From NCBI GenBank assembly GCA_022820705.1, contig JAJEEZ010000645.1:1-37196 (forward strand): a DNA stretch of 37,196 bases, given 5' to 3'. Both the position numbers and the translations under genes were made by a program. Shown in pieces: positions 6,502 to 27,673 of the stretch; position 1 is the first letter of the stretch; every line of letters starts with the position of its first letter. This stretch comes from Candidatus Latescibacterota bacterium. Lineage in GTDB: Bacteria > Latescibacterota > UBA2968 > UBA8231. The notes under the pieces are model-generated. The model saw only the letters and a program-made list of their open reading frames with translations, searched no databases and was not told the origin of the DNA.

Positions 6502-7344
6502 ATGCGTATTGACTCCCATCTGCACGTCTTCGCCCGCCCCAGTGCCGAGTTCCCGCGCGAGATCACTTCAAGTATGCCCGCCGAGCGCGAAGCCCCCGTC
6601 GAGGATTTCTTGGCGCACATGGCCGACCACGCCATTGACAAAGCCGTGCTCGTGCAAACCGGCGGCACCAGCCTCGCGCATCACGCCTATTTACAACACT
6701 GCCTGCGCACCTATCCCGACCGCTTCTTAGGCATCGGCTTGATCCCGCCCGACGAGTCCTCACCCGCCGACCACATGGATCGCCTCGCCGCAGCCGGCTC
6801 GATCATCGGCTTCCGGCTCCGCTCTCTCGGCGACTTTTCCCGTCCGATATGGGAACACGCCGCCCGCAAAGACTACGTGCTCTGGCTCTACCTGCGCGCT
6901 ACCTCCGCCCCACTACTGCCCCAGTTCCTCGCGGATTTCCCCCAAGTGCGCGTCGTGATTAATCACCTCATGGTTTGCCCACGCGAGGATCGGTTCACTT
7001 GGGACGCCAAGGGCCGCCCGCAGATCGACACAGAGATGCCGCCGCCGACCGGATTCCTCGGCCCTGCGCCCGATTCGCCCAACGTCTGCGTCCATTTGTC
7101 GGGTCAATACGCCATGAGCAAGGCGGCCTATCCCTATCCCGACTTGGCCGCTTGGCACCGCAGCCTGCTGGACGCTTTTGGTGCCGAACGCCTGCTATGG
7201 GCTTCGGATTTTCCCTGGATTGTAGCCGACCCCGGCTACGGCGAATGCGTCGAGGTCCTTGATCACCTGCTGCCCGACCTGAGCAGCGAGCAGCGCCAAC
7301 TCATCATGGGCGAGACCGCGCGGCGGTTTCTCGGCTTTAGGTGA
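6502..7344 (+). CDS. Amidohydrolase-2 family metal-dependent hydrolase
   Basis: N-terminal RIDSHLHVF (HxH metal motif) and C-terminal ASDFPW, typical of this family. Confidence 0.8.
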   Translation: MRIDSHLHVFARPSAEFPREITSSMPAEREAPVEDFLAHMADHAIDKAVLVQTGGTSLAHHAYLQHCLRTYPDRFLGIGLIPPDESSPADHMDRLAAAGSIIGFRLRSLGDFSRPIWEHAARKDYVLWLYLRATSAPLLPQFLADFPQVRVVINHLMVCPREDRFTWDAKGRPQIDTEMPPPTGFLGPAPDSPNVCVHLSGQYAMSKAAYPYPDLAAWHRSLLDAFGAERLLWASDFPWIVADPGYGECVEVLDHLLPDLSSEQRQLIMGETARRFLGFR

Positions 7345-7395
7345 AGGACACGACCACTGGTGGTTGCAATCGGGCCATAGGTACGGATGTCTTCC

Positions 7396-8211
7396 TCAAG
7401 GTACCTGAGCCGTGTTTTTCTTTAGGAATCGGATAAACTCTTGCCCAAGCTCTGTAACCTCTAGGAGTTCAGATGGGCCAGAAGTTGGGCCAAGATGCCC
7501 AAGACCGAATCCCCGAGTATAGAGAAGTGCCTTTGACATTAAATCTTGGATTAAAAAAGAGTACTCCGAATCCGAGACATTATAGTGACTCGGCTGGCAG
7601 TACTCAACGCTTGTATCACTATCGTCTTCCCCTGTATCCTCTCGTTCCTCAGCCGCCCGCAGATGTTCAGCCAAAATGCGCACTTGGATGTCTGACAGGG
7701 CAATCAACAGATCCAGAAAGCGATCGTCGAAAGGCGTACCTTCGGCGTGCTGCAACCGGCCCGCGAGTACTGCGGCCAGTTTTCTTCGCTTTTCCTCCGC
7801 TCTAACCTTGGCAGCTCGTATCAAGACATCTTCTAGGAAATCGACAAACTCTGGGCTGTGAATATAGGCGACATCAATTTTGTCGGTCTCAAGAGTCTGA
7901 AGGTTTTCTGCCAGATACCCCACGAACTTTTCGAGACGTTCCTGTTTAAGACGGGCGCGCCCTTCAAAAATAGCTTCGTTTAGCAGTGTTCCAACGTACG
8001 GGATTGCACCGACGAGTCCGCGAACCACCACTTCAGTCGATTTTTTGACGTAGGCTTCTGCGGGCAGAGACGTAGTGCTTACCACGCGACTGCGATCTTG
8101 TTTTGCAGCACCGCGCAAACGGTTTAGAAATCGGTCGAGATCGCCGCCGCACTCTTCCCAAATTTTCTGCCTCGTCTGGTGAATTTCTTCAACGATAGGA
8201 TCGCGGTTCAT
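7396..8211 (-). CDS. Antitoxin-like N-terminus fused to a ~215-aa helical plus winged-helix-like module; putative partner of the PIN toxin
   Basis: ATG 8211 is preceded by GGAGGAG. The longer 8331 start would run through the PIN gene in another frame. The N-terminus is MNRDPIVEEIHQTRQKIWEECGGDLDRF. Confidence 0.6.
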   Translation of the reverse strand: MNRDPIVEEIHQTRQKIWEECGGDLDRFLNRLRGAAKQDRSRVVSTTSLPAEAYVKKSTEVVVRGLVGAIPYVGTLLNEAIFEGRARLKQERLEKFVGYLAENLQTLETDKIDVAYIHSPEFVDFLEDVLIRAAKVRAEEKRRKLAAVLAGRLQHAEGTPFDDRFLDLLIALSDIQVRILAEHLRAAEEREDTGEDDSDTSVEYCQPSHYNVSDSEYSFLIQDLMSKALLYTRGFGLGHLGPTSGPSELLEVTELGQEFIRFLKKNTAQVP

Positions 8212-8692
8212 ATTCTCCTCCGGGCGGTTGCAAAAGTTCTTCAGGTGTAACAATGACAGGCATGTGAAGATGCAATTCCGAATTAATAGCTCCGAGCCGA
8301 CGAATGACTTCCCCATTAGCAATATGGGCACAATTCCATGTTACCAGATAGTCCATTGAGTATGTAACAGCTAAAGCAATATGGGGCAAGTCTATCTGGG
8401 CACGGCCTGTCAAACCGAGACGTTGAGCGTAGATGGAAATAAGGTCCTGCACCTCATTATTGAGCTCTATGACCGGCAATTTTTCCACGATCGCTAGACG
8501 ACGTGCGACTATATCTGGATCACCGAGACAAATTTCTGCCAACACAGCCTCGGAAATATATACATCGAAACGTTCGCGAGCACCGCGCCACCAATCACGT
8601 GTGATCTGCTGGTGAGCAGCAATAATAATATCTCGGCTTGGCCGAGCAGCTAAGTAACTGGGAATCGTCGTTTCCAAATAAACGGTTGGCAT
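8189..8692 (-). CDS. PIN-domain ribonuclease, VapC-like type II toxin
   Basis: 167 aa. VYLETTIPSYLAARPSRD ... MDYLVTWNCAHIAN matches a widespread PIN subfamily as I recall it. The gene starts 30 nt downstream of the obg stop. Confidence 0.8.
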   Translation of the reverse strand: MPTVYLETTIPSYLAARPSRDIIIAAHQQITRDWWRGARERFDVYISEAVLAEICLGDPDIVARRLAIVEKLPVIELNNEVQDLISIYAQRLGLTGRAQIDLPHIALAVTYSMDYLVTWNCAHIANGEVIRRLGAINSELHLHMPVIVTPEELLQPPGGEYEPRSYR

Positions 8693-11853: not shown

Positions 11854-13047
11854 TTAAACTCCCCGCCGCGTCCGCACCCAGTCGAGGATGCGGTCGGCGA
11901 CCGCAGACTTGCTCAGCAGGGGCAGGTCCTCCTCTTGGCCCTCAACGTCAATCAGGGTAACGCGATTGGTGTCGCCGGCAAAACCAGCCCCTTCGTCGTT
12001 GAGCATGTTGAGCACGATTAAGTCGCCCCCTTTGCGCACCAGCTTCTCCCGCGCCCGCTCCGGCCCCTTTTCCGTCTCCATCGCAAAGACGACCAGCAAC
12101 CGCTGGCCCTTGCGTTGACCTAGCCCAGCGGCAATGTCCGGGTTTTCGATCAACTCGATAGAGCGAGATGCAGCACCGCGCTTGATTTTTTGCGCGGCCA
12201 CTTCCTTGGCGCGATAGTCGGCCGGAGCTGCCGCCAAAATCGCCCCATCTACTTGCTCAAACAAGGTCTCGACAGCGCGCTGCATGTCGCTCGTCGAGCG
12301 CACCAACTGCCGTTCCACACCAGCGGGCGCGGGCAGTGCAGTCGGCCCGGAAACCAGCCACACGCGCGCCCCACGCGCCGCGGCCCGTTCGGCTATCGCA
12401 TAGCCCATCTTGCCCGACGAGCGATTGGAAATAAAGCGCACCGGATCGAGGTCCTCGACCGTGGGACCAGCCGTTACCAGCAGCTTCAGTCCATCCAAGT
12501 CGCCGCTGAAATGCGCCGCAACCGCCTCAACCAACTCCGCTGGCTCGGGCATCCGCCCGCGGCCAACCGCACCCGACGCCAGAGGCCCCACCCCTGGTTC
12601 GAGCAGGTGGAACCCCCGCTCTGCCAAGGTCTGCACATTGGCCTCGACCGCGGGATTGGCGAACATGTTCTCCTCCATCGACGGCACCAGCAGGACGGGG
12701 ACACCCGCGCACAACAACACCGAGGTGAGCAAGTCGTCGGCCAAACCGCCGGCTATGCGCCCCAAACAGTGCGCCGTAGCCGGAGCTACTAAAATCAAGT
12801 CGGTCCACTCGGCCAACCCCACGTGCAGGACGGGAAATTCCGCATCGCGGCCAAATAAATCGCTGTACACCGCGTGGCGGGAAAGCACTTCTAACGTCTT
12901 GGGCGCGACGAACTCGCCAGCCGCGCGGGTCAATACCACTCGTACCTCAACCCCTTCAGCCATCAACAGCCGCACAATCTCCGGCGTCTTGTACGCGGCA
13001 ATGCCGCCGGTGACTCCGAGTAGGATATGGCGACCCTGCAAGCTCAT
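11854..13047 (-). CDS. coaBC: Bifunctional phosphopantothenoylcysteine decarboxylase / phosphopantothenate-cysteine ligase
   Basis: ILLGVTGGIAAYK flavoprotein N-terminus plus a CoaB half (ISNRSSGKMG). ATG 13047 overlaps the upstream stop as ATGA. Confidence 0.9.
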   Translation of the reverse strand: MSLQGRHILLGVTGGIAAYKTPEIVRLLMAEGVEVRVVLTRAAGEFVAPKTLEVLSRHAVYSDLFGRDAEFPVLHVGLAEWTDLILVAPATAHCLGRIAGGLADDLLTSVLLCAGVPVLLVPSMEENMFANPAVEANVQTLAERGFHLLEPGVGPLASGAVGRGRMPEPAELVEAVAAHFSGDLDGLKLLVTAGPTVEDLDPVRFISNRSSGKMGYAIAERAAARGARVWLVSGPTALPAPAGVERQLVRSTSDMQRAVETLFEQVDGAILAAAPADYRAKEVAAQKIKRGAASRSIELIENPDIAAGLGQRKGQRLLVVFAMETEKGPERAREKLVRKGGDLIVLNMLNDEGAGFAGDTNRVTLIDVEGQEEDLPLLSKSAVADRILDWVRTRRGV

Positions 13048-20189: not shown

Positions 20190-21059
20190 TCAGCGCAATT
20201 CGCGCACAAACGACGGGCTGAACGCGCCGCGCGCTACTTCGGAGACCGGCCCCTTCATCGTCAGGTCGTAGCTTGCGCTCACGTCGATGTGCAATGTCCC
20301 ACCTGGGGCCCTAACCGCAACCGGACTTTTGACCAAGCCCAGCCGCACCGCCGCACTCGCAGCCGCACACGCCGACGATCCCGACGCCTGCGTTTCACCG
20401 GCACCGCGTTCCCAGATCAGGATGTAGATCGCATGAGGCCCCACGGGCACGGCGAGCTGTACGTTGATGCGCCGGGGGAAGAGCGGGTGATTTTCCAACT
20501 CTGGCCCCAAAGAGCATAGCTCGTCCTCAGTCCACCGAGCGCCCTGTTCGCGGAAGACGACGCAGTGCGGATTGCCGACGCTGACGCCGGTAAAGGTCAA
20601 AGTCTGCCCGCCGACATCAATCGGCTGCGCGACCAGCTCTTCGGCTTCCAGCGTGCAGGGCAAGGCTTGCGGCGCAAACGTCGCTCGCCCCATCTGCACC
20701 GTGGCGGTGCTGGCGTCACCATGCTGATCAATGTGCAAATCAACGCTCACTAAGCCGCCCTCCGTTTCGACCGTGAACTGCTGCTTTTGCACCTGGCCGG
20801 TGGCGTGCAGGTAGCGGGCGAATATCCGCAGACCATTGCCTGACTTTTCCGCCTCGCTGCCGTCGGGGTTGTAGATTTTCAGGCCAAAGTCGGCCTTTTG
20901 CGACGGTGCCAGCGCGAGAATGCCGTCGCTGCCCACGCCCCAATGGCGGTCGCAAATCGTGCGGATATTGTCTGGCGTCAGCTCAAAGCTGAGCCCAGCC
21001 GGATCAACGGCAATGTAGTCATTGCCGAGGCCGTGTCCCTTGAAAAATTCGTTGTCCAT
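20190..21059 (-). CDS. dapF: Diaminopimelate epimerase family protein, with both catalytic Cys positions occupied by Ser
   Basis: FKGHGLGNDY, NPDGSEAEKSGNGLR, GNPHCVVF and ERGAGETQASGSSACAA are colinear with DapF. The start is set at MDNEFF (ATG 21059). Confidence 0.8.
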   Translation of the reverse strand: MDNEFFKGHGLGNDYIAVDPAGLSFELTPDNIRTICDRHWGVGSDGILALAPSQKADFGLKIYNPDGSEAEKSGNGLRIFARYLHATGQVQKQQFTVETEGGLVSVDLHIDQHGDASTATVQMGRATFAPQALPCTLEAEELVAQPIDVGGQTLTFTGVSVGNPHCVVFREQGARWTEDELCSLGPELENHPLFPRRINVQLAVPVGPHAIYILIWERGAGETQASGSSACAAASAAVRLGLVKSPVAVRAPGGTLHIDVSASYDLTMKGPVSEVARGAFSPSFVRELR

Positions 21060-21219
21060 TATGCGTCCTTTCTCGTTTGTCTTACAGAACTTAGACCCCT
21101 GCTCAAGCAGGGTCAAACAAAGTTGCCGAGGGGAGGCCGGCCGGTATATTAGCCTTCATGTTGTGCTTAGTAGTAGCCCTCGCGGCAGAGGCGCGCCCGC
21201 TTATTGGCCTCCCACTGCC
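21046..21219. repeat. Left copy of a ~174-bp direct repeat (dapF-like 5' end + 98-nt divergent intergenic region + first ~60 nt of the nucleosidase gene)
   Basis: Aligns colinearly with 24930-25102. By eye there are about 10 differences, including one 1-nt indel. Confidence 0.85.
21094..21114. promoter_or_regulatory. Conserved stem-loop in the divergent intergenic region (GACC(C)CTGC-TCAA-GCAGGGTC)
   Basis: 8-bp stem with one bulged C and a 4-nt loop. It is identical in both repeat copies and lies ~35 nt upstream of the dapF-like ATG on the minus strand. Confidence 0.35.
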
Positions 21220-21447
21220 ATTTGCGCGTACTCAGCCAGCAGTTTCACGCGCTCCACGCCGAGCCACCCGGTCTCGCCGAGCCAACCGCCCGCTGGTAAT
21301 TCACGGCCACGCAACAGTATCAGTTGCGCGGCTTGCTCGCGCGCTGGCAAGCGCTGGCACCGGCGACTCCTGCCGTCAACAACGACTTGCTGGCCTTGCA
21401 AAGGCGCGATGAAGTGTTACGTTATCTTCAACGGCAGCTAGCGGCCA
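21158..21447 (+). pseudogene. Decayed copy of the nucleosidase gene (5' ~60 nt joined to the 3' ~230 nt; ~0.5-kb internal deletion, frameshift, TAA nonsense)
   Basis: MLCLVVALAAEARPL is identical to the start of the 25042 gene. 21219-21447 aligns with ~25600-25825 at roughly 80-85 % by eye. CAA in the intact copy is TAA here (TGG TAA at ~21295). Confidence 0.75.
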
Positions 21448-21491
21448 TGGTTTTCACCTTAATCTATTGAGGATGGAGGAGTGAATTCAGG

Positions 21492-22607
21492 ATGAATAGT
21501 CCCCAAAGATATAACGCGCTAAGTCTTTTCTCTGGGGCCGGAGGAATGGATATAGGCGTACAGGATGCGGGATTCGATATTCTAGCACAAATAGAAATAG
21601 ATGAACACTGCTGCAACACCCTACGTGCGGCAAGAGAACGCGAAAAAAGAGATACCAAAATTATTGAGTCAGATATTAGAGAGATTGACCCAGCCGAACT
21701 TCGCAAAGACTTAAACCTAGAAAAAGGCGAACTCGATCTTCTTTTTGGAGGCCCCCCTTGTCAATCTTTCTCCTTAGCAGGAAAGCAACTTGGCTTAAAA
21801 GACGAGAGAGGCATGTTACTATTCGAGATTGTTCGGTTTTCCGAAGAGCTAGAACCAAAGGTGATTTTAGTTGAGCAAGTAAAAGGGCTTCTCTCATCAA
21901 AAGGATCCGAGCAGCGAAGAGGTGAAATTTTTGAGAAATTTTTAATAGCCTTAGAAAATGCTGGTTATTCTTCCAAATGGAGAGTTGTTTTAGCCGCAGA
22001 TTACGGCGTACCTCAACTGCGAGAGCGATTATTCGTAATCGCCACGCTGAAAAGAAACGGCTTCCTCTTTCCAGAACGAACATACGCACCGCTAGAAGAA
22101 TGTAATGGATTGTTCTCGTATAAACCTCATGTCGGTATCGGCTCCGTAATTGAAAATCTAGGAACACCTTCACCAAAAATTAGGGGAACTACTTTCTACG
22201 ACCGCGAGGACAGCCACGTCGATGTAACGCCAGCTAGGGACAGGGAACGCATCGAACAGGTTCCCGAGGGATCATATTTGGCAGCTCATCCTCACTTAGG
22301 TAAAAGATTACTCAGAGGTCTTAAATCAAAGGACACCACAAAGTATTTAAGGCTGCATAGGGATAGACCTGCTAATACATTAAGGTGTGGAGAGATTTTC
22401 TATCATCCCATCGAAGATAGGTATCTCACGCCACGGGAATATATGAGAATTCATGGCTATCCCGATTCATATATCCTAAAAGGACCTATACGCAGTAGAA
22501 CGGGTACCGTGAAAAACTTAGACCAGCATAGGCAAGTTGCGAATTCAGTTCCCCCTCCTCTCGCAGAGGCTTTGGCGAGCAAAATTTTCGAGTACCTAAA
22601 TGAGTAA
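21492..22607 (+). CDS. dcm: DNA (cytosine-5)-methyltransferase
   Basis: Motif I LFSGAGGMDIG, IV GGPPCQSFS, VI VEQVKGL, VIII QLRERLFVIA, IX LTPREYMRIHGYPDSY, X ANSVPPPLAEAL. SD GGAGGAG lies upstream. Confidence 0.9.
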   Translation: MNSPQRYNALSLFSGAGGMDIGVQDAGFDILAQIEIDEHCCNTLRAAREREKRDTKIIESDIREIDPAELRKDLNLEKGELDLLFGGPPCQSFSLAGKQLGLKDERGMLLFEIVRFSEELEPKVILVEQVKGLLSSKGSEQRRGEIFEKFLIALENAGYSSKWRVVLAADYGVPQLRERLFVIATLKRNGFLFPERTYAPLEECNGLFSYKPHVGIGSVIENLGTPSPKIRGTTFYDREDSHVDVTPARDRERIEQVPEGSYLAAHPHLGKRLLRGLKSKDTTKYLRLHRDRPANTLRCGEIFYHPIEDRYLTPREYMRIHGYPDSYILKGPIRSRTGTVKNLDQHRQVANSVPPPLAEALASKIFEYLNE

Positions 22608-23706
22608 AATTTTTGAAGTATTTGGCCATCCATTAACCTCAAATCATCCTGATGCGATTGACTGTCGCACGAGGGCTTGGTGTCCATTCATGGAGAATGA
22701 ATGTGATGGTGGAGGCAATAGGCATCTCTCCGCTTTGAATTTGCGGAACTATCCACAATTAGCTCAACAATTCCCTAAAAAAGATACTATTCAGGTTGGG
22801 GTCTGTTCACTCTTGGTGCGTGGGAAGCCTTGGATTGTTTGTCCTAGGCGCTTATTCGCCCTGCGGGATTCCAACTGTTCTCATCTTCAAGCAAGAGTTC
22901 GAGAGGACCTGATCCAATATAGCGGAGTAGATAGAGCAATCGAATATCGGGCATGGTCTGAGGTAAAGATAAAATTCTCAATGAATAAAAATGAAAAAGA
23001 GAAAACATTTGACTATACCTTCGACTACGTTTTGGCAGGAAGGTGCAGAAAATCACTTAGCGAAATATCAGAACTAGTTAAAAAGAGCGAGCGAGAATGT
23101 GAGAAAATTGCGACCCAAAACAAATTCACGCTAGAAAGGTATGCTGGAGAGCACTGGGTAGTCGATTTTCCCGCTGATCCAATAGTAATAGTCGAGGTGA
23201 TGACCTCATCTACCTCTGGGGGAAACAAAAAGAAGAGAACGCAAATAGGAATGGCTTTTGAAGATGCTATCTTGAAAGGAGACGACCACGAAGGCCCCGG
23301 TATTAACTATAGACAAGTATGGGCGCGAATGGTCAGTCAACTTATTGTAAAATCACAGGTTAGTTTGGCTTGGGGTGGAAAAACTATTTGGATTGTACAG
23401 GATGCTTTAGCGGACTATATTTCTTCTTCGACCGGACTGGATCTCCAACGATTCATCAGTAGCACTTCAGATGAGGTGAACATATTGTCCTTTGGATATG
23501 GGAACAATCCCGAGCCTGAAGAGGACTCCGGGATCGTCCCTCTATGTGAATCCCAGCTATATGCGGGACCTGTATCTTCAGCCAAAGGATCCGGTAAAAG
23601 TGGTGGATTTATGGACATCATCACTATTGGCGTACCACCTCCGAAAGATTACTTATGGAAATCGCTTTTCCGCAAGTCTCCGTGTGGTAGCGTTAATGTG
23701 CCGTAG
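22600..23706 (+). CDS. Type II restriction endonuclease, NotI-like family
   Basis: EVFGH, WCPF, EC, GVC and WIVCPRR are colinear with the NotI N-terminal Cys4 region as I recall it (FFGH, CPF, SC, GVC, WLVCPNR). FDYTFDY and IVIVEVMT occupy the PD-(D/E)XK positions. The ATG overlaps the methylase stop by 8 nt. Confidence 0.65.
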   Translation: MSKIFEVFGHPLTSNHPDAIDCRTRAWCPFMENECDGGGNRHLSALNLRNYPQLAQQFPKKDTIQVGVCSLLVRGKPWIVCPRRLFALRDSNCSHLQARVREDLIQYSGVDRAIEYRAWSEVKIKFSMNKNEKEKTFDYTFDYVLAGRCRKSLSEISELVKKSERECEKIATQNKFTLERYAGEHWVVDFPADPIVIVEVMTSSTSGGNKKKRTQIGMAFEDAILKGDDHEGPGINYRQVWARMVSQLIVKSQVSLAWGGKTIWIVQDALADYISSSTGLDLQRFISSTSDEVNILSFGYGNNPEPEEDSGIVPLCESQLYAGPVSSAKGSGKSGGFMDIITIGVPPPKDYLWKSLFRKSPCGSVNVP

Positions 23707-23744
23707 CCGCCTCGCATTCGCTGCACGGAGTTGATATTATAGCC

Positions 23745-24527
23745 TCAGAAGGGTAATTCATCATAGTCTATGTATGGATTCTTCTCGGAGTATGGCTTCT
23801 CCTCAAAGGAATCAAGCAATGGCTGCAACTCCTTGGCCCACTCAGCAGTGGAGAAAAGGAGCTCTGCAGACAGTGAGTCGTAGTACCTTTTGTCGCCAGA
23901 CGACAGCCCATCTTTGCATAACCGGAGTATAAAGTCATTGGGTCTCTTCCCATACCCTATGAGGTATCGAAAGAAGTAGCGGAAGACGTAGTCCTGCTCG
24001 CCCCTATTGGGAGAACTGAGCTTCTTGGTTAACGTGTAGATTGCTTGGTCTCTTAACTCCATTGAATCAATAATATTGGCCAGCCAAGTGCCAAGTGCCC
24101 CCCCGAGATACTCTCCAGAATTTGCCTTGTACTCCCCTTCCTTGAGAGATTTCAGTAGCCGACTTTCGATCCGAAGCCTTGCTATGCGAGCGATCTGATT
24201 CCATTCGTCTCCAGCGAACACCTTGGTAGCAATCCTGATGGTAGCGTCATCTTCGGTTGTCTTGAGATCCTCAGATACCAGTGCCACAAACGCTGATCTA
24301 TCTTCCGCATCCAACCTATTGAGGATCGAGTGAGCCACTAGTCTCATCACTTGAGGATTTACTTCGGTCCGGGCTTCGTAGATGGCAGTCAGTGTATCGT
24401 TGAGCTTCTCCTTTGGTATCTCAGATACGATGAGATCTGTGTATTCCTCACTTTCAACGAAGTGTTCGTCACGGATTCTCTGAATCATATCTCCGATCTC
24501 GAAAGGTGCTTTGGCCTTATTGATCAT
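23745..24527 (-). CDS. Uncharacterised helical region; most likely the 3' part of the frameshifted TIGR02391-domain gene
   Basis: 260-aa ORF. Its frame stays open upstream to 24590 and there encodes KIEDNKEVADRILAFLDYLLQ, the expected end of the TIGR02391 domain. Confidence 0.6.
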   Translation of the reverse strand: MINKAKAPFEIGDMIQRIRDEHFVESEEYTDLIVSEIPKEKLNDTLTAIYEARTEVNPQVMRLVAHSILNRLDAEDRSAFVALVSEDLKTTEDDATIRIATKVFAGDEWNQIARIARLRIESRLLKSLKEGEYKANSGEYLGGALGTWLANIIDSMELRDQAIYTLTKKLSSPNRGEQDYVFRYFFRYLIGYGKRPNDFILRLCKDGLSSGDKRYYDSLSAELLFSTAEWAKELQPLLDSFEEKPYSEKNPYIDYDELPF

Positions 24528-24886
24528 CTGCAGGAGATAGTCGAGGAAGGCGAGGATCCGGTCAGCAACCTCCTTGTTATCCTCGATTTTTTATGGCTTC
24601 TCGGATTTCTTATAGCCTGCATAACGCCACGAAGAAGCGACCCCGTTCCCTTTTGAATATTCCTATCAGACTCGCTCCTGAGAGGAGTGAGTTTAAGCTT
24701 GGGATCAGATCCACCAAGTGCTTCGCCAACCAAGGAAACCCCATCGCTCTCGCATCCAGTACGATCACGAAGGACTTCATTCAATAGGAAGATAGAATCG
24801 AGAATAGCACCTGTGTAGTTCGCCTTTTCGTAGTTGGCATATATAGCCTTTGATAATTGTTCGGACAATTCAATTTGGATGTTCAT
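24524..24886 (-). CDS. TIGR02391 (Hypoth_Ymh) domain protein, 3' end out of frame
   Basis: YANYEKANYTGAILDSIFLLNEVLRD ... GSLLRGVMQAIRNPRSH matches the family signature (RNPxxH). After the A6 run the frame gives a junk tail, SRITRRLLTGSSPSSTISCR. SD AAGGAG lies upstream. Confidence 0.7.
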   Translation of the reverse strand: MNIQIELSEQLSKAIYANYEKANYTGAILDSIFLLNEVLRDRTGCESDGVSLVGEALGGSDPKLKLTPLRSESDRNIQKGTGSLLRGVMQAIRNPRSHKKSRITRRLLTGSSPSSTISCR

Positions 24887-24895
24887 GGATACTCC

Positions 24896-24943
24896 TTAGC
24901 CTGTTTGGACTATAGCTCCGCTGTTGTTCAATTCGTTGTTCAT
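24896..24943 (-). CDS. 15-codon upstream ORF derived from the duplicated dapF-like start (MNNELNNSGAIVQTG)
   Basis: The ATG is in the same context as the dapF-like ATG in the left repeat. The TAA stop overlaps the SD (TAAGGAG) of the TIGR02391 gene. Translation is unproven. Confidence 0.3.
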   Translation of the reverse strand: MNNELNNSGAIVQTG

Positions 24944-25102
24944 TATGTGCCCTTTCTCGTTTGTCTTACAGAACTTAGACCCCTGCTCAAGCAGGGTCAA
25001 ACCAAGTTGCCGAGGGGAGGCCAGCCGGTATATTAGCCATCATGTTGTGCTTAGTAGTAGCTCTCGCGGCTGAGGCGCGCCCGCTGTTGGCCTTCCACCG
25101 CC
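24930..25102. repeat. Right copy of the ~174-bp direct repeat
   Basis: See the left copy. The offset is 3884 nt. Confidence 0.85.
24978..24998. promoter_or_regulatory. Second copy of the conserved intergenic stem-loop
   Basis: Sequence identical to 21094-21114. Confidence 0.35.
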
Positions 25103-25878
25103 TCCAAGGCGTGAGCGACCATCCCTATCGCATCTGCGCGGGCGAGCAGACACACCTGATTGTCTCCGGCGTCGGTAAAATAGCCGCCGCAGCAGCCACG
25201 GCGTACCTGCGTGCATTGATCGGCGATACACCGGCTGCTTGGCTCAATATCGGTATCGCCGGCCACGGCAGCCAAGCAGTGGGGACGCCTCTGCTAGCGC
25301 ATAAGATCGTGGACGCAGCCAGCGGCAAGCCCTTTTACCCCACCTTCACCGCGCCCCCGCCCTGTCGCACCACTTTGCTACATACCGTCGATCGCGCACA
25401 ACCAGCTACTGGCGACGTTGCGTACGACATGGAAGCCAGCGGCTTTTGCGAGGCCGCCCAGCGCTTTGCCACCAGCGAGCGAGTCCACTGCCTCAAGGTA
25501 GTATCCGACAACCCGCAATCTCCCTATCAGACACTTAATGCGGAGAAAGTGGAGGCGTTAATAGAAACGCAACTCGATGCGGTCGCCCAAGTTGGCGAAC
25601 ATTTGCGAGCACTCAGCCAGCAGCTTCACGCACTACACGCCGACCCGCCCGGCCTTGCCGAGCTAACCACCCGCTGGCAATTTACCACTACGCAACAGCA
25701 CCAGTTGCGCGGCTTGCTCGCACGTTGGCAGGCGCTGTCAAAGACGCCCATTGTCAACGACGACTTGCTGGCCTTGCAAAACCGCGACGAAGTATTAGCC
25801 CATCTTAAGCAGCGGCTAGACGAAGTGGAGTTTTTTCTTATTCCAGAAGCGACGAAAGATGCTCAGGCAAAAGCCTAA
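25042..25878 (+). CDS. PNP_UDP_1 family nucleosidase/phosphorylase (MTA-/futalosine-nucleosidase-like) with a ~85-aa C-terminal extension
   Basis: LVVALAAEARPL N-terminus, SGVGKIAAA, GIAG and YDMEASGF motifs. The helical tail (TTRWQFTTTQQHQLRGLLARWQ) is not part of the standard fold. Confidence 0.7.
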   Translation: MLCLVVALAAEARPLLAFHRLQGVSDHPYRICAGEQTHLIVSGVGKIAAAAATAYLRALIGDTPAAWLNIGIAGHGSQAVGTPLLAHKIVDAASGKPFYPTFTAPPPCRTTLLHTVDRAQPATGDVAYDMEASGFCEAAQRFATSERVHCLKVVSDNPQSPYQTLNAEKVEALIETQLDAVAQVGEHLRALSQQLHALHADPPGLAELTTRWQFTTTQQHQLRGLLARWQALSKTPIVNDDLLALQNRDEVLAHLKQRLDEVEFFLIPEATKDAQAKA

Positions 25879-25968
25879 CGACGGTTGGACAACTTGAAAA
25901 TAGCGTTGGCAAACGAATAATACGGCTCGTTTGTGCTTCATCTATACCTATCCTAAAGAAAGGAAACT

Positions 25969-26859
25969 GTGATGCCGCAAAAATTCTTGCTGTGGACGGT
26001 CGCCCTGCTCAGCTTCTACAGCCACGCCCTAGGCCAAGACGGCCCGTACATTCAGATGGGCTGGGGGATCGCCGTTGCTCCGGCGATGGACGTGAGGGGC
26101 ACCGACAACGACTGGAGCACCAAGTGCGACCGAATCATCAATCCGGACGGGTTAGAAGTGAGCGATGAATGCGATTCAGTGCCAGCCCCAACGGAATGGG
26201 AAAATGCGTTTGGCGGCGGCTCTGGAATCGGGTCGGGCTTCGCTCTTGGCTATCGCTGGGGAGCCTTCAGAATCGAGGGAGAGTACTTCCACCGCAGCAC
26301 GACCTACGACGAGCGCTCCGACATTGCCATCTTCGACGAAATAACCCTCGACAAGCAGGATCAGGAAATCGAATTGGCCATCGCCGGGATCGACAACTTG
26401 CAATCGCACAACCTGTTCGCCAACGCTTACTACGACTTTACCTTGGGACCGGCGCTAGTGTCGTACGCCGGGGCTGGAGCGGGGATGGCAAGCACATCGT
26501 TTTACTATTTTACTAATTGGAAGCGCAACGACGACCCCAGCCGGATTAGGACGTTTGCAGACCCGGATTTGAACGCGAAAATCGCCGGTTCAACCACGAT
26601 CGGCCAAGCGCGACTGACCGACCGCCGCATAGGCTATCAACTGCTCGTCGGCGCGGCCTATCAGATCGGCGATCGCGCCGCTTTGGATCTCAAGTTGCGC
26701 TGGATGACTTCCGGCGAGTTCGCAAGCGAAAAAACCGAGTGGGATCAACTGCGCAGCCACGACTCCACAGTGGGGCGCGGCGAGCCGATTCTATACACTA
26801 TTACCACGGACGACACCTCGTTCTGGGGAGCGGGCCTTAGCCTGCTATACCAGTTCTGA
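25969..26859 (+). CDS. Outer-membrane beta-barrel protein
   Basis: Signal peptide (LLSFYSHALG/QD), alternating beta-strand pattern, C-terminal LSLLYQF. The start could be ATG 25972. Confidence 0.75.
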   Translation: MMPQKFLLWTVALLSFYSHALGQDGPYIQMGWGIAVAPAMDVRGTDNDWSTKCDRIINPDGLEVSDECDSVPAPTEWENAFGGGSGIGSGFALGYRWGAFRIEGEYFHRSTTYDERSDIAIFDEITLDKQDQEIELAIAGIDNLQSHNLFANAYYDFTLGPALVSYAGAGAGMASTSFYYFTNWKRNDDPSRIRTFADPDLNAKIAGSTTIGQARLTDRRIGYQLLVGAAYQIGDRAALDLKLRWMTSGEFASEKTEWDQLRSHDSTVGRGEPILYTITTDDTSFWGAGLSLLYQF

Positions 26860-26884
26860 GGATCGCTTTAGCAAGGGAGGAGCT

Positions 26885-27673
26885 ATGATCAGCGCCGAAC
26901 AATTAAGGACCTTTGAGGAACGGGGCGCTGTCACCATTGACACGCCTTTGACGACCGAAGAAATCGCCGCGGCCGCGGCCGCCATCGACGCACTACTGCC
27001 TTTTAAACCAGCCGAACCGGACCAGGCACCGCGTTTTCGCTACGGAGCGACCTGCAATTACTACGAGCCGGCCCTACTGGACCTGATCCAGCATCCCTTC
27101 TTTGAAGCGGTCGCCAAACGAGTATTGCGAGCCGATGCGATCCGCTTTTTCCAGACGGCGATTGTGGCTTCTTATCCCCAGCCGGAAAGCGAGTTCAGCT
27201 ACGACCAGCACACCGATATCCAGTACAGCTTGGCGGATTGGGCTGCGACGCCACGGCGGGTCGTATGCAGTTTTTTTCTGTGGTTGACCGATGTCAATGA
27301 GCAGCGGGCACCGATGATGCACCGACCCGGCAGCCACCGCCTAGTAGCTGCCGCGCGTTCGGTCGATCCAGTGCTGAAAGACGCGATGCCGGGAGTCCAG
27401 GGCATCAAAATGGTGGACCTGCCGCCGGAATACGCTGCGCCGCAGCCGGTTTTGGCACAAGCGGGACAGGTAACAGTGCTGACGACGTCCATGGTCCACG
27501 GCGGATCGACCAATATAGACGACGAGCCGCGCAAGGCGCTGGTTATGACCTATACTGCGGCGGGAGTCGCGATCGGCCTACCCGAAAATCAGGCGGCGAC
27601 CAAGCGAGAATACGACGCCAAACTAAGAGAGCTTCTGCGGCCCGAGCGGGCGCATCTAGTAGCTGAGGACTAG
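26885..27673 (+). CDS. Phytanoyl-CoA dioxygenase (PhyH) family Fe(II)/2-oxoglutarate oxygenase
   Basis: N-terminal LRTFEERGAVTI, HTD (HxD), a distal VHGGSTN His, and SD GGGAGGAG. Confidence 0.8.
   Translation: MISAEQLRTFEERGAVTIDTPLTTEEIAAAAAAIDALLPFKPAEPDQAPRFRYGATCNYYEPALLDLIQHPFFEAVAKRVLRADAIRFFQTAIVASYPQPESEFSYDQHTDIQYSLADWAATPRRVVCSFFLWLTDVNEQRAPMMHRPGSHRLVAAARSVDPVLKDAMPGVQGIKMVDLPPEYAAPQPVLAQAGQVTVLTTSMVHGGSTNIDDEPRKALVMTYTAAGVAIGLPENQAATKREYDAKLRELLRPERAHLVAED

Follow-up and report, generated by a model that had tools for sequence, protein, structure and literature searches.

Comparing related loci, we lean, on balance, towards the following origin for a defence-gene insert in a Candidatus Latescibacterota bacterium: at a cassette hot spot, host recombination long ago joined an allele that was occupied to one that was empty. 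The insert lies in contig JAJEEZ010000645.1 of assembly GCA_022820705.1, whose whole analysed stretch of 37,196 nt is called the window here, between dapF, which encodes diaminopimelate epimerase, and a nucleosidase-like gene that we call nuc. It carries a C5 cytosine DNA methyltransferase gene (M), a gene for a putative restriction endonuclease (R) and a gene of the HEPN type, and it is enclosed by two long direct repeats. The repeats are the 5' ends of two diverged nuc alleles, of which the left one is now a pseudogene (psi-nuc); in 13 relatives, M and R stand directly behind a single intact nuc.

The repeats, at 21046-21219 and 24930-25102, are colinear: a global alignment gives identities in 162 of 174 columns (93.1%) with a single 1-nt gap, and a repeat search of the window finds an ungapped core of 167 nt with 92% identity. 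Each copy contains codons 1-4 of dapF (as reverse complement, ATGGACAACGAA in the left copy and ATGAACAACGAA in the right, the latter called dapF' here), the complete 98-nt divergent intergenic region between dapF and nuc (21060-21157 and 24944-25041) and the 5' portion of nuc, 62 nt on the left and 61 nt on the right. The empty-site relatives L001 and L002 have this segment in single copy. A second matching stretch of about 220 nt pairs 21220-21441 with 25601-25819 at about 78-84% identity; it belongs to a nuc 3' end of 251 nt (21220-21470) between the repeats, which is 78% identical to 25601-25825. Since the left repeat and this decayed 3' end together make one nuc copy minus 498 nt, the original duplication was about 0.9 kb long, and the 174-nt repeats are the 5' ends of two whole nuc transcription units that run from dapF codon 4 to the nuc stop. 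The intergenic hairpin CCCTGC-TCAA-GCAGGG (21093-21113 and 24977-24997) is identical between the copies and kept in all relatives; an Rfam scan of the whole window gave zero matches, so that the hairpin can be assigned to none of the known RNA families.

Between psi-nuc and the right repeat lie 3459 nt with 45.3% G+C, against 61.7% in the left flank and 58.3% in the right. From repeat start to repeat start the distance is 3.88 kb. The insert stays below 20 kb, and M, R and the HEPN gene are all that it encodes. No recombinase open reading frame (ORF; integrase or transposase) was found within 21046-25102, no tRNA across the 37-kb window, and no terminal inverted repeat in a repeat search of the island. 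A site-specific island borne by an integrase or transposase was therefore rejected, also because the cassette ends differ between genomes (for M-R, 23691-23743). The original prediction, made from the letters alone, had drawn this anatomy well: colinear repeats of about 174 bp with one 1-nt indel and roughly 94% identity by eye, their dapF, intergenic and nuc content, about 230 nt of decayed nucleosidase 3' end, and some 3.5 kb of AT-rich DNA (40-45% against about 65% G+C by eye). It had likewise named two convergent units, a methylase with its partner on the plus strand and a TIGR02391-domain gene on the minus strand, with which the gene calls and domains agree, and its description of the cargo as foreign and defence-like, with no integrase, transposase, tRNA or inverted terminal repeat, holds at 45% against about 60% G+C and after ORF, tRNA and repeat searches.

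The left copy, psi-nuc (21158-21470, plus strand), consists of the 62-nt 5' end of nuc joined at 21219|21220 to its last 250 nt or so, and it ends in LRYLQRQLAAMVFTLIY before the stop. Missing from it are 498 nt, equivalent to 25103-25600; a surplus T puts it out of frame (+1 indel), and it contains a stop codon. Five genomes (the window, L003, L004, L014 and L017) have exactly the same deletion junction, CCACYGCC|ATTTGCG, which shows that it goes back to one old event. In L010, the left copy decayed by a different route, and the left copies must therefore formerly have been intact. For these reasons the target duplication at insertion that the original prediction had offered as one route does not fit as a fresh event: identity between the 3' parts is down to 78%, and the deletion junction is common to five genomes.

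With one genome scanned per species, 21 orthologous loci emerged, all in Latescibacterota metagenome-assembled genomes (MAGs), among them two under the label Gemmatimonadota and many at chromosome scale. Another eight loci came from look-ups of close R homologues, and the comparison, mapped by tblastn and blastn, comprises 33 related loci. They show three states. State A is empty: dapF, one repeat and nuc are followed by phyH, with or without the outer-membrane gene omp296 in between (8 loci: L001, L002, L005, L007, L008, L009, L011 and L015). These eight loci, which have dapF, one copy and nuc and no M-R, supply the empty site that had been named as a check. In state B there is no duplication, and dapF is followed by an intact nuc of 268-277 aa, M, R, in some the HEPN gene, and the right flank (13 loci: L012, L013, L016, L018-L021 and L028-L033). 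State C is the arrangement of the window, with psi-nuc, M and R on the left and nuc on the right (the window, L003, L004, L010, L014, L017 and L027, and L006 in part). Thus, M-R directly follows an intact, unduplicated nuc in 13 of the 20 complete loci that carry it. Along window 20900-27000, the 6.26-Mb chromosome of L003 keeps the same order for 6.1 kb at 93.8% identity. Window 21230-24930, from the psi-nuc 3' end to the end of the island, matches L013 colinearly at 95.3%; in L013 this DNA stands behind an intact nuc.

The two nuc copies of the window correspond to the alleles of these two unduplicated states. The tail of psi-nuc and its junction to M agree with the intact nuc of L013 (269 aa, ending ADMEFTLIY), and the psi-nuc 3' end has the B state at 4 of 5 sites that are diagnostic for A and B. 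The right copy and the state-A genes end in EFFLIPExTKDxQxxA, unlike the TLIY ending of psi-nuc and L013. Neighbour joining of the nuc 3' region sets the pseudo copies apart in separate clades (96% and 100% bootstrap) and places the right copies with nuc genes of sister genomes in state A; L003, for example, has its right copy next to L002 (99% bootstrap). The 13 unduplicated loci, the psi-nuc tail of that type and the divergence of the copies as alleles all point to the duplication being secondary to the first insertion. On a tree of the dapF/omp85 flanks, states A, B and C are interleaved, which would imply exchange by homologous recombination; the clade that holds L003, L004 and the window, with 100% support, also takes in the empty L001 and L002. 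A second, indirect hint of such exchange, by transformation and homologous recombination, is that sister genomes differ more in nuc than in the flanks of nuc: between the window and L004, the flanks are 96.8% identical, the psi copies 95.3% and the functional nuc 3' ends 86.3%. The last comparison, window 25600-25878 against L004 8563-8840 (86%), points to frequent allele replacement at the locus, and to judge from sequence nuc looks like a hot spot of allele replacement or of diversifying selection.

The right end of the island bears on how the two alleles may have been brought together. The AT-rich insert ends with the region upstream of the HEPN gene (24887-24929, minus strand), which is joined to dapF codon 4 at 24929|24930. 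Homology between the window and L013 stops at 24930, and L013 goes on with 262 nt of island-like DNA (44.7% G+C). Because the island of L013 thus extends past the equivalent of 24929, the joint 24929|24930 is a secondary one. The 262-nt segment had been a candidate for a decayed second nuc copy, that is, for reciprocal loss; it showed no similarity to nuc and is AT-rich island-like DNA instead. Within this segment, which the other loci fetched do not have, L013 also carries a perfect 75-nt tandem duplication (12274-12423), two 100% identical copies with a hairpin in each, directly after the end of the island homology. Of additional note, the 8-mer GTTGTTCA occurs on either side of the joint (window 24918-24942, CTGTTGTTCA ATTC GTTGTTCAT), for which a post hoc estimate gives a chance of roughly 1e-4. 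The pair hints at microhomology-assisted or templated joining, though both copies are retained. A metagenome scan with a 48-nt pattern for further right junctions of the HEPN cassette gave no matches.

We infer the following order of events and propose two routes for the joint. First, a foreign Type II-like M-R would have settled at the 3' end of nuc, supplying its last codons, which gave state B. An occupied and an empty allele would then have been joined by one homologous exchange and one illegitimate joint (24929|24930), so that dapF, promoter, nuc of type B, M, R and the HEPN gene came to be followed by dapF', a second promoter, nuc of type A, omp296 and phyH: state C. This could have happened by homology-facilitated illegitimate recombination, as invoked for the orphan arrays of type VI secretion system (T6SS) and Rhs loci (PMC5361080), or by single-crossover integration of a circularised fragment made up of repeat, nuc, M, R and the HEPN gene; the comparison does not distinguish donor from recipient genome. 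With two copies present, the upstream nuc would have been redundant and have decayed by the 498-nt deletion, the frameshift and the stop codon. M and R would be read from the left nuc promoter through psi-nuc, as they would be through nuc in state B, and the HEPN gene, frameshifted here, may be read from the duplicated dapF-side promoter via a short upstream ORF (uORF). The repeats would allow RecA-type excision back to state A. Part of this was foreseen: "homologous capture from a relative", another of the routes in the original prediction, is close to the joint of B and A alleles, and its suggestion of excision through the repeats is plausible, with the empty L001 and L002 nested in an occupied clade and the nuc of L002 sister to the right copy of L003 (99%).

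Several observations weigh against an allele joint of this kind. The sites diagnostic for A and B number just five, and the first shows the A state, so that their support is weak. The right copy starts at repeat position 1 in the window, L003 and L006, at 15 in L004 and at about 100, at the -10 box, in L010, L014 and L017; in L027 (4700-7200), a unit of a 73-nt nuc 3' fragment, M and R cleanly splits the predicted -10 hexamer, T from A, and has neither duplicated nor deleted target sequence; nuc follows R within a few nucleotides. Several additional events or recombinants are required for these different starts and the clean insertion. Two intact nuc copies in one genome were not found among the loci compared. 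The D1 copies cluster by host clade and not by side, a mosaic that neither proves nor excludes a crossover; the excision footprint looked for, a single left-to-right switch in the repeat of L001 and L002, was likewise a mosaic and uninformative. A simple GTTGTTCA microhomology junction is ruled out by the retention of both copies, 4 nt apart, and the promoter matches of the consensus scan total no more than the shuffled background. Finally, the order B then C is unproven, and an ancient insertion that duplicated 0.9 kb, followed by the loss of either copy, explains much of the same data.

The last of these points is an explanation in its own right, which we regard as possible and on the whole unlikely. 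M-R-HEPN would have inserted in a common ancestor and duplicated the 0.9-kb dapF'-promoter-nuc segment at once, perhaps via repair of a double-strand break induced by the restriction-modification (RM) system itself; B would then come from loss of the right copy, C from decay of the left and A from excision. The locus has what the survey of Furuta and colleagues in 2010 asks of such insertions formally (M and a partner gene, here the putative R, an insert below 20 kb, repeats above 30 bp and a single alignment at the empty site). The 78% identity of the left and right nuc 3' ends is about the clade-wide divergence and compatible with an old duplication, and the A-state genomes nest among C-state genomes. 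The present data weaken this explanation, however. L013, in state B, has island-like AT-rich DNA beyond the island end of the window and therefore cannot descend from a state C like that of the window. A pair of perfect 0.9-kb repeats would be highly unstable, and the 13 B loci have at least 2 types of nuc-M junction, which, with M-R fragments behind the omp gene in L020 and inside the promoter in L027, indicates repeated reshuffling and not descent from a single event.

An adaptive capture of promoters appears improbable to us; here the element would bring along, or select for, copies of the bidirectional host promoter to drive both M-R and the HEPN gene. It was the inference of the original prediction, which had the cargo installed so that host promoter copies drive both of its operons. 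In the window, L003 and L006, the right copy does place the full dapF-side intergenic region and start codon before the HEPN gene, making the uORF, and M starts 21 nt past the psi-nuc stop with no promoter-like match between. The comparison with relatives does not support the inference, since 13 of the 20 complete carriers, the B loci, are unduplicated. The intact HEPN gene of L013 has island DNA upstream and not the dapF/nuc intergenic region, the right copy of L010, L014 and L017 keeps only the -10 box, and the insertion in L027 parts -35 from -10. Moreover, L004 has another gene in the HEPN position, and the HEPN gene of the window carries a frameshift. We regard the duplication as a side effect of recombination and not as a design.

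We give an equally low probability to tandem amplification of a nuc-M-R-HEPN unit, after which the second cassette would have been lost and the second nuc replaced by an A allele. RM amplification via flanking repeats is cited as experimentally shown (Furuta 2010, PMC2853133), and the novel joint between the HEPN end and dapF codon 4 has the topology of a tandem duplication; this path takes more steps, however, and none of the 33 loci has two M-R copies. A chimeric or collapsed-repeat assembly can be practically dismissed: MAG contigs with 174-nt repeats could mislead short-read assemblers, but the arrangement is independent of assembly, as the same order and junctions were assembled separately in L003 (the 6.26-Mb chromosome), L004, L014 (a 4.52-Mb chromosome), L017 and others, and copies that are 7% diverged are not collapsible.

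The allele joint finds its setting in the interval between nuc and phyH. In one clade of Latescibacterota MAGs, this interval is a hot spot with varying content, defence genes and other cassettes. From about nuc codon 267 to 26865, the relatives have nothing, omp296, omp296 with a redoxin-family gene, M-R, M-R-HEPN, M-R with a 255-aa gene (L004), or an M-R remnant with an AriA/GajA-like ATPase pair (L019). The last nuc codons come from each cassette itself. With conserved flanking genes, alternative cassettes and no mobility genes, the interval has the defining features of a cassette hot spot. Its flanks are dapF-nuc on the left and phyH or a gene of the SPL family on the right. In L004 and L007, omp296 lies between direct repeats of the nuc 3' end of 145-166 nt and 73-80% identity (L004 8682-8847 and 9829-9994; L007 8698-8842 and 9844-9988; the redoxin-family gene, 446 aa, then follows), which are the same footprint of long duplication around a cassette that is not an RM system. 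In L020, the order is nuc, omp, an orphan nuc 3' fragment and M-R, and in L019 an orphan nuc 3' fragment stands 3' of the M-R remnant. We also looked for conserved integron-like or att-like motifs at the cassette boundaries and rejected them, as the end points vary from genome to genome. Such variable ends fit illegitimate joints and deletions, not site-specific recombination.

Some details of the alternative cassettes may be added here. In L019 (8945-12363), R has been lost except for its last codons, which now continue M in a single 416-aa ORF; the alternative, defence-like pair downstream consists of a 456-aa AAA ATPase (PADLOC HEC-02A and PD-T4-4_A, AriA and GajA-like) and a 185-aa protein with no known domain. 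In L004, the 255-aa gene in the HEPN position (6901-7668, minus strand) has no Pfam or PADLOC match and stands next to what is left of the HEPN gene, its last 58 nt.

Within the insert of the window, M (21492-22607, plus strand) is a C5 cytosine DNA methyltransferase (PF00145 7.9e-64, TIGR00675 7.6e-55, PADLOC MTase_II 2.6e-78). R (22600-23706, plus strand; 368 aa) overlaps the end of M by 8 nt and belongs to an unannotated family. The original prediction had called it an endonuclease. The part of this that stands is the partner gene overlapping a methylase; a nuclease domain or fold was not found in Pfam, NCBIfam or PDB searches. By sequence, R matches nothing in Pfam, NCBIfam or PDB, and it has a weak PADLOC REase_II match (E=0.002). 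An AlphaFold model of R (predicted local distance difference test, pLDDT, 76; predicted template modelling score, pTM, 0.79) gave no significant match to PDB by Foldseek, and a Cas4-like PD-(D/E)XK assignment was discarded, as the best Foldseek match had E=0.39 and was not usable. Of 1268 R homologues, none is named and none has a Pfam domain; in 3 of 3 distant contexts, across phyla, the homologue overlaps and directly follows a PF00145 methylase. Four cysteines are conserved in the family, and a GGGNR motif is invariant. We see in it a candidate for a new family of restriction endonucleases, in which the nuclease role would follow from the position next to M. All R homologues at 83% identity or more come from this single locus, and tblastn searches of plasmid and phage collections gave no match for R and identified no vehicle.

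The third gene of the insert, a HEPN-type gene with a TIGR02391/Ymh domain (23745-24886, minus strand), is not intact in the window: a 1-nt deletion in the homopolymer T6 at 24587-24592 divides it into ORFs of 120 aa (PF09509 4.3e-21) and 260 aa, the latter being its C-terminal region. The relatives L013, L003 and L006 have a run one base longer and a single ORF of 379 aa (PF09509 1.1e-23; PADLOC PD-Lambda-3_B 8.4e-11, Aga_HEPN 5.4e-10), in which an N-terminal Ymh domain and an RNPRSH motif (R-x4-H) are followed by about 260 residues. The frameshift is either a real pseudogene or a homopolymer sequencing error. Upstream, the ATG of the duplicated dapF' opens a uORF of 15 codons whose end falls within the Shine-Dalgarno sequence of the HEPN gene; the uORF noted in the original prediction is thus real.

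Of the host genes on both sides, the real dapF in the conserved left flank (20190-21059, minus strand; TIGR00652 9.4e-69, PF01678 1.2e-51) has 89-99% aa identity across 20 related loci. The intact nuc (25042-25878, plus strand; 278 aa) is of the empty-site allele type, has the tail EFFLIPEATKDAQAKA and shows weak similarity to futalosine hydrolase and PNP_UDP_1; its orthologues come from 21 Latescibacterota loci. A consensus scan gave a sigma-70-like promoter match (TTGCCG-16-TATATT; 21123-21150, plus strand) for nuc or psi-nuc, M and R, and its second copy (25007-25034, plus strand) for the functional nuc. Because the predicted -10 ends 7 nt 5' of the nuc ATG in both copies, the nuc transcript may be leaderless. 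Further right, omp296 (25969-26859, plus strand; PF02462/PF13505), an outer-membrane beta-barrel gene, is itself a variable cassette of the hot spot and is missing from L008, L009, L011 and L006. The conserved right flank (26865-27673, plus strand) begins 20 nt 5' of phyH, of the phytanoyl-CoA dioxygenase family (PF05721 1.5e-16), and homology resumes at 26864-26870 in every locus that carries phyH. Elsewhere in the window, a patch of low G+C content (7396-8692, minus strand; about 49% against about 62%) lies between an amidohydrolase-like gene and obg and holds ORFs of 311 and 167 aa with no Pfam match; it may be another small foreign insert.

A broader proposal, which we offer tentatively and think rather less than probable, is that integrase-free cassettes such as the RM genes, the HEPN gene, the ATPase pair and the omp gene are moved solely by host recombination, which would systematically leave duplicated pieces of host genes behind, and that the states seen here are the intermediates that explain long target duplications. 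If that were so, duplications around RM genes would arise from the joining of occupied and empty alleles, or from Campbell-type integration of a circle, and not from the RM enzymes. The intermediates would be the empty site, the cassette behind an intact gene, the merodiploid with reciprocal decay, the orphan 3' fragments and the clean insertion into the promoter. The mechanism of long target duplication was left open in the 2010 survey (PMC2853133) and is still unproven; the present clade offers a dense natural series of at least 33 loci, chromosome-scale assemblies included, in which the order of events should be reconstructable. Defence genes are often mobile with no recognisable mobility gene, and the series further shows that a host promoter duplicated beside foreign cargo need not mean promoter capture.

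These findings can be set beside several known systems. As in Type II RM systems with a C5 methyltransferase, M (PF00145, TIGR00675) is accompanied by an overlapping partner ORF that is conserved beside C5 methyltransferases across phyla; unlike in those systems, the partner has no recognised nuclease domain, no named homologue (0 of 1268) and no PDB match by sequence or predicted fold. The locus also resembles the minimal mobile elements of Neisseria (PMC3082526, PMC1538595) in its conserved flanks, alternative cassettes, lack of mobility genes and interleaved states. The classical elements, however, swap cleanly by double crossover in the flanks and are known from naturally transformable bacteria, whereas here many illegitimate junctions leave duplicated pieces of the left flank and the hosts are uncultured.

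Similar, too, are the orphan arrays of T6SS effector-immunity, Rhs and contact-dependent inhibition (CDI) loci, which have been explained by homology-facilitated illegitimate recombination (Kirchberger et al. 2017, PMC5361080). There, too, a constant gene body has a variable 3' tail, and an incoming module displaces the old 3' end and cargo and leaves orphan repeats; the counterparts here are the orphan nuc 3' fragments in L004, L007, L019 and L020, together with the nuc of the window, which was displaced as a whole. The anchor here is a housekeeping-type nucleosidase, not a toxin, and the cargo consists of defence genes and an outer-membrane protein. In addition, the displaced copy of the window is complete with its promoter and is now the functional one.

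The arrangement recalls most directly the insertion of RM genes with long target duplication (Nobusato et al. 2000 Gene 259:99; Furuta, Abe & Kobayashi 2010, PMC2853133), in which the repeats often span translation starts or stops and keep the neighbouring genes intact (PMC2853133). Shared with it are M and a partner gene in a low-G+C insert with no integrase, transposase or tRNA, and long direct repeats that are single-copy at the empty site, span translation starts and leave the flanking genes intact. Here, however, the duplication of about 0.9 kb takes in a whole gene and a bidirectional promoter, against 46-423 bp in the published tables (PMC2853133); one copy is a pseudogene, and the copies are diverged alleles (78-93%), not near-identical. 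The unduplicated state B in 13 loci suggests that here the duplication came after the first insertion, and the same footprint also surrounds omp296, which is not an RM gene. Rather than a new kind of element, the locus is a further example of the known pattern of insertion with long target duplication.

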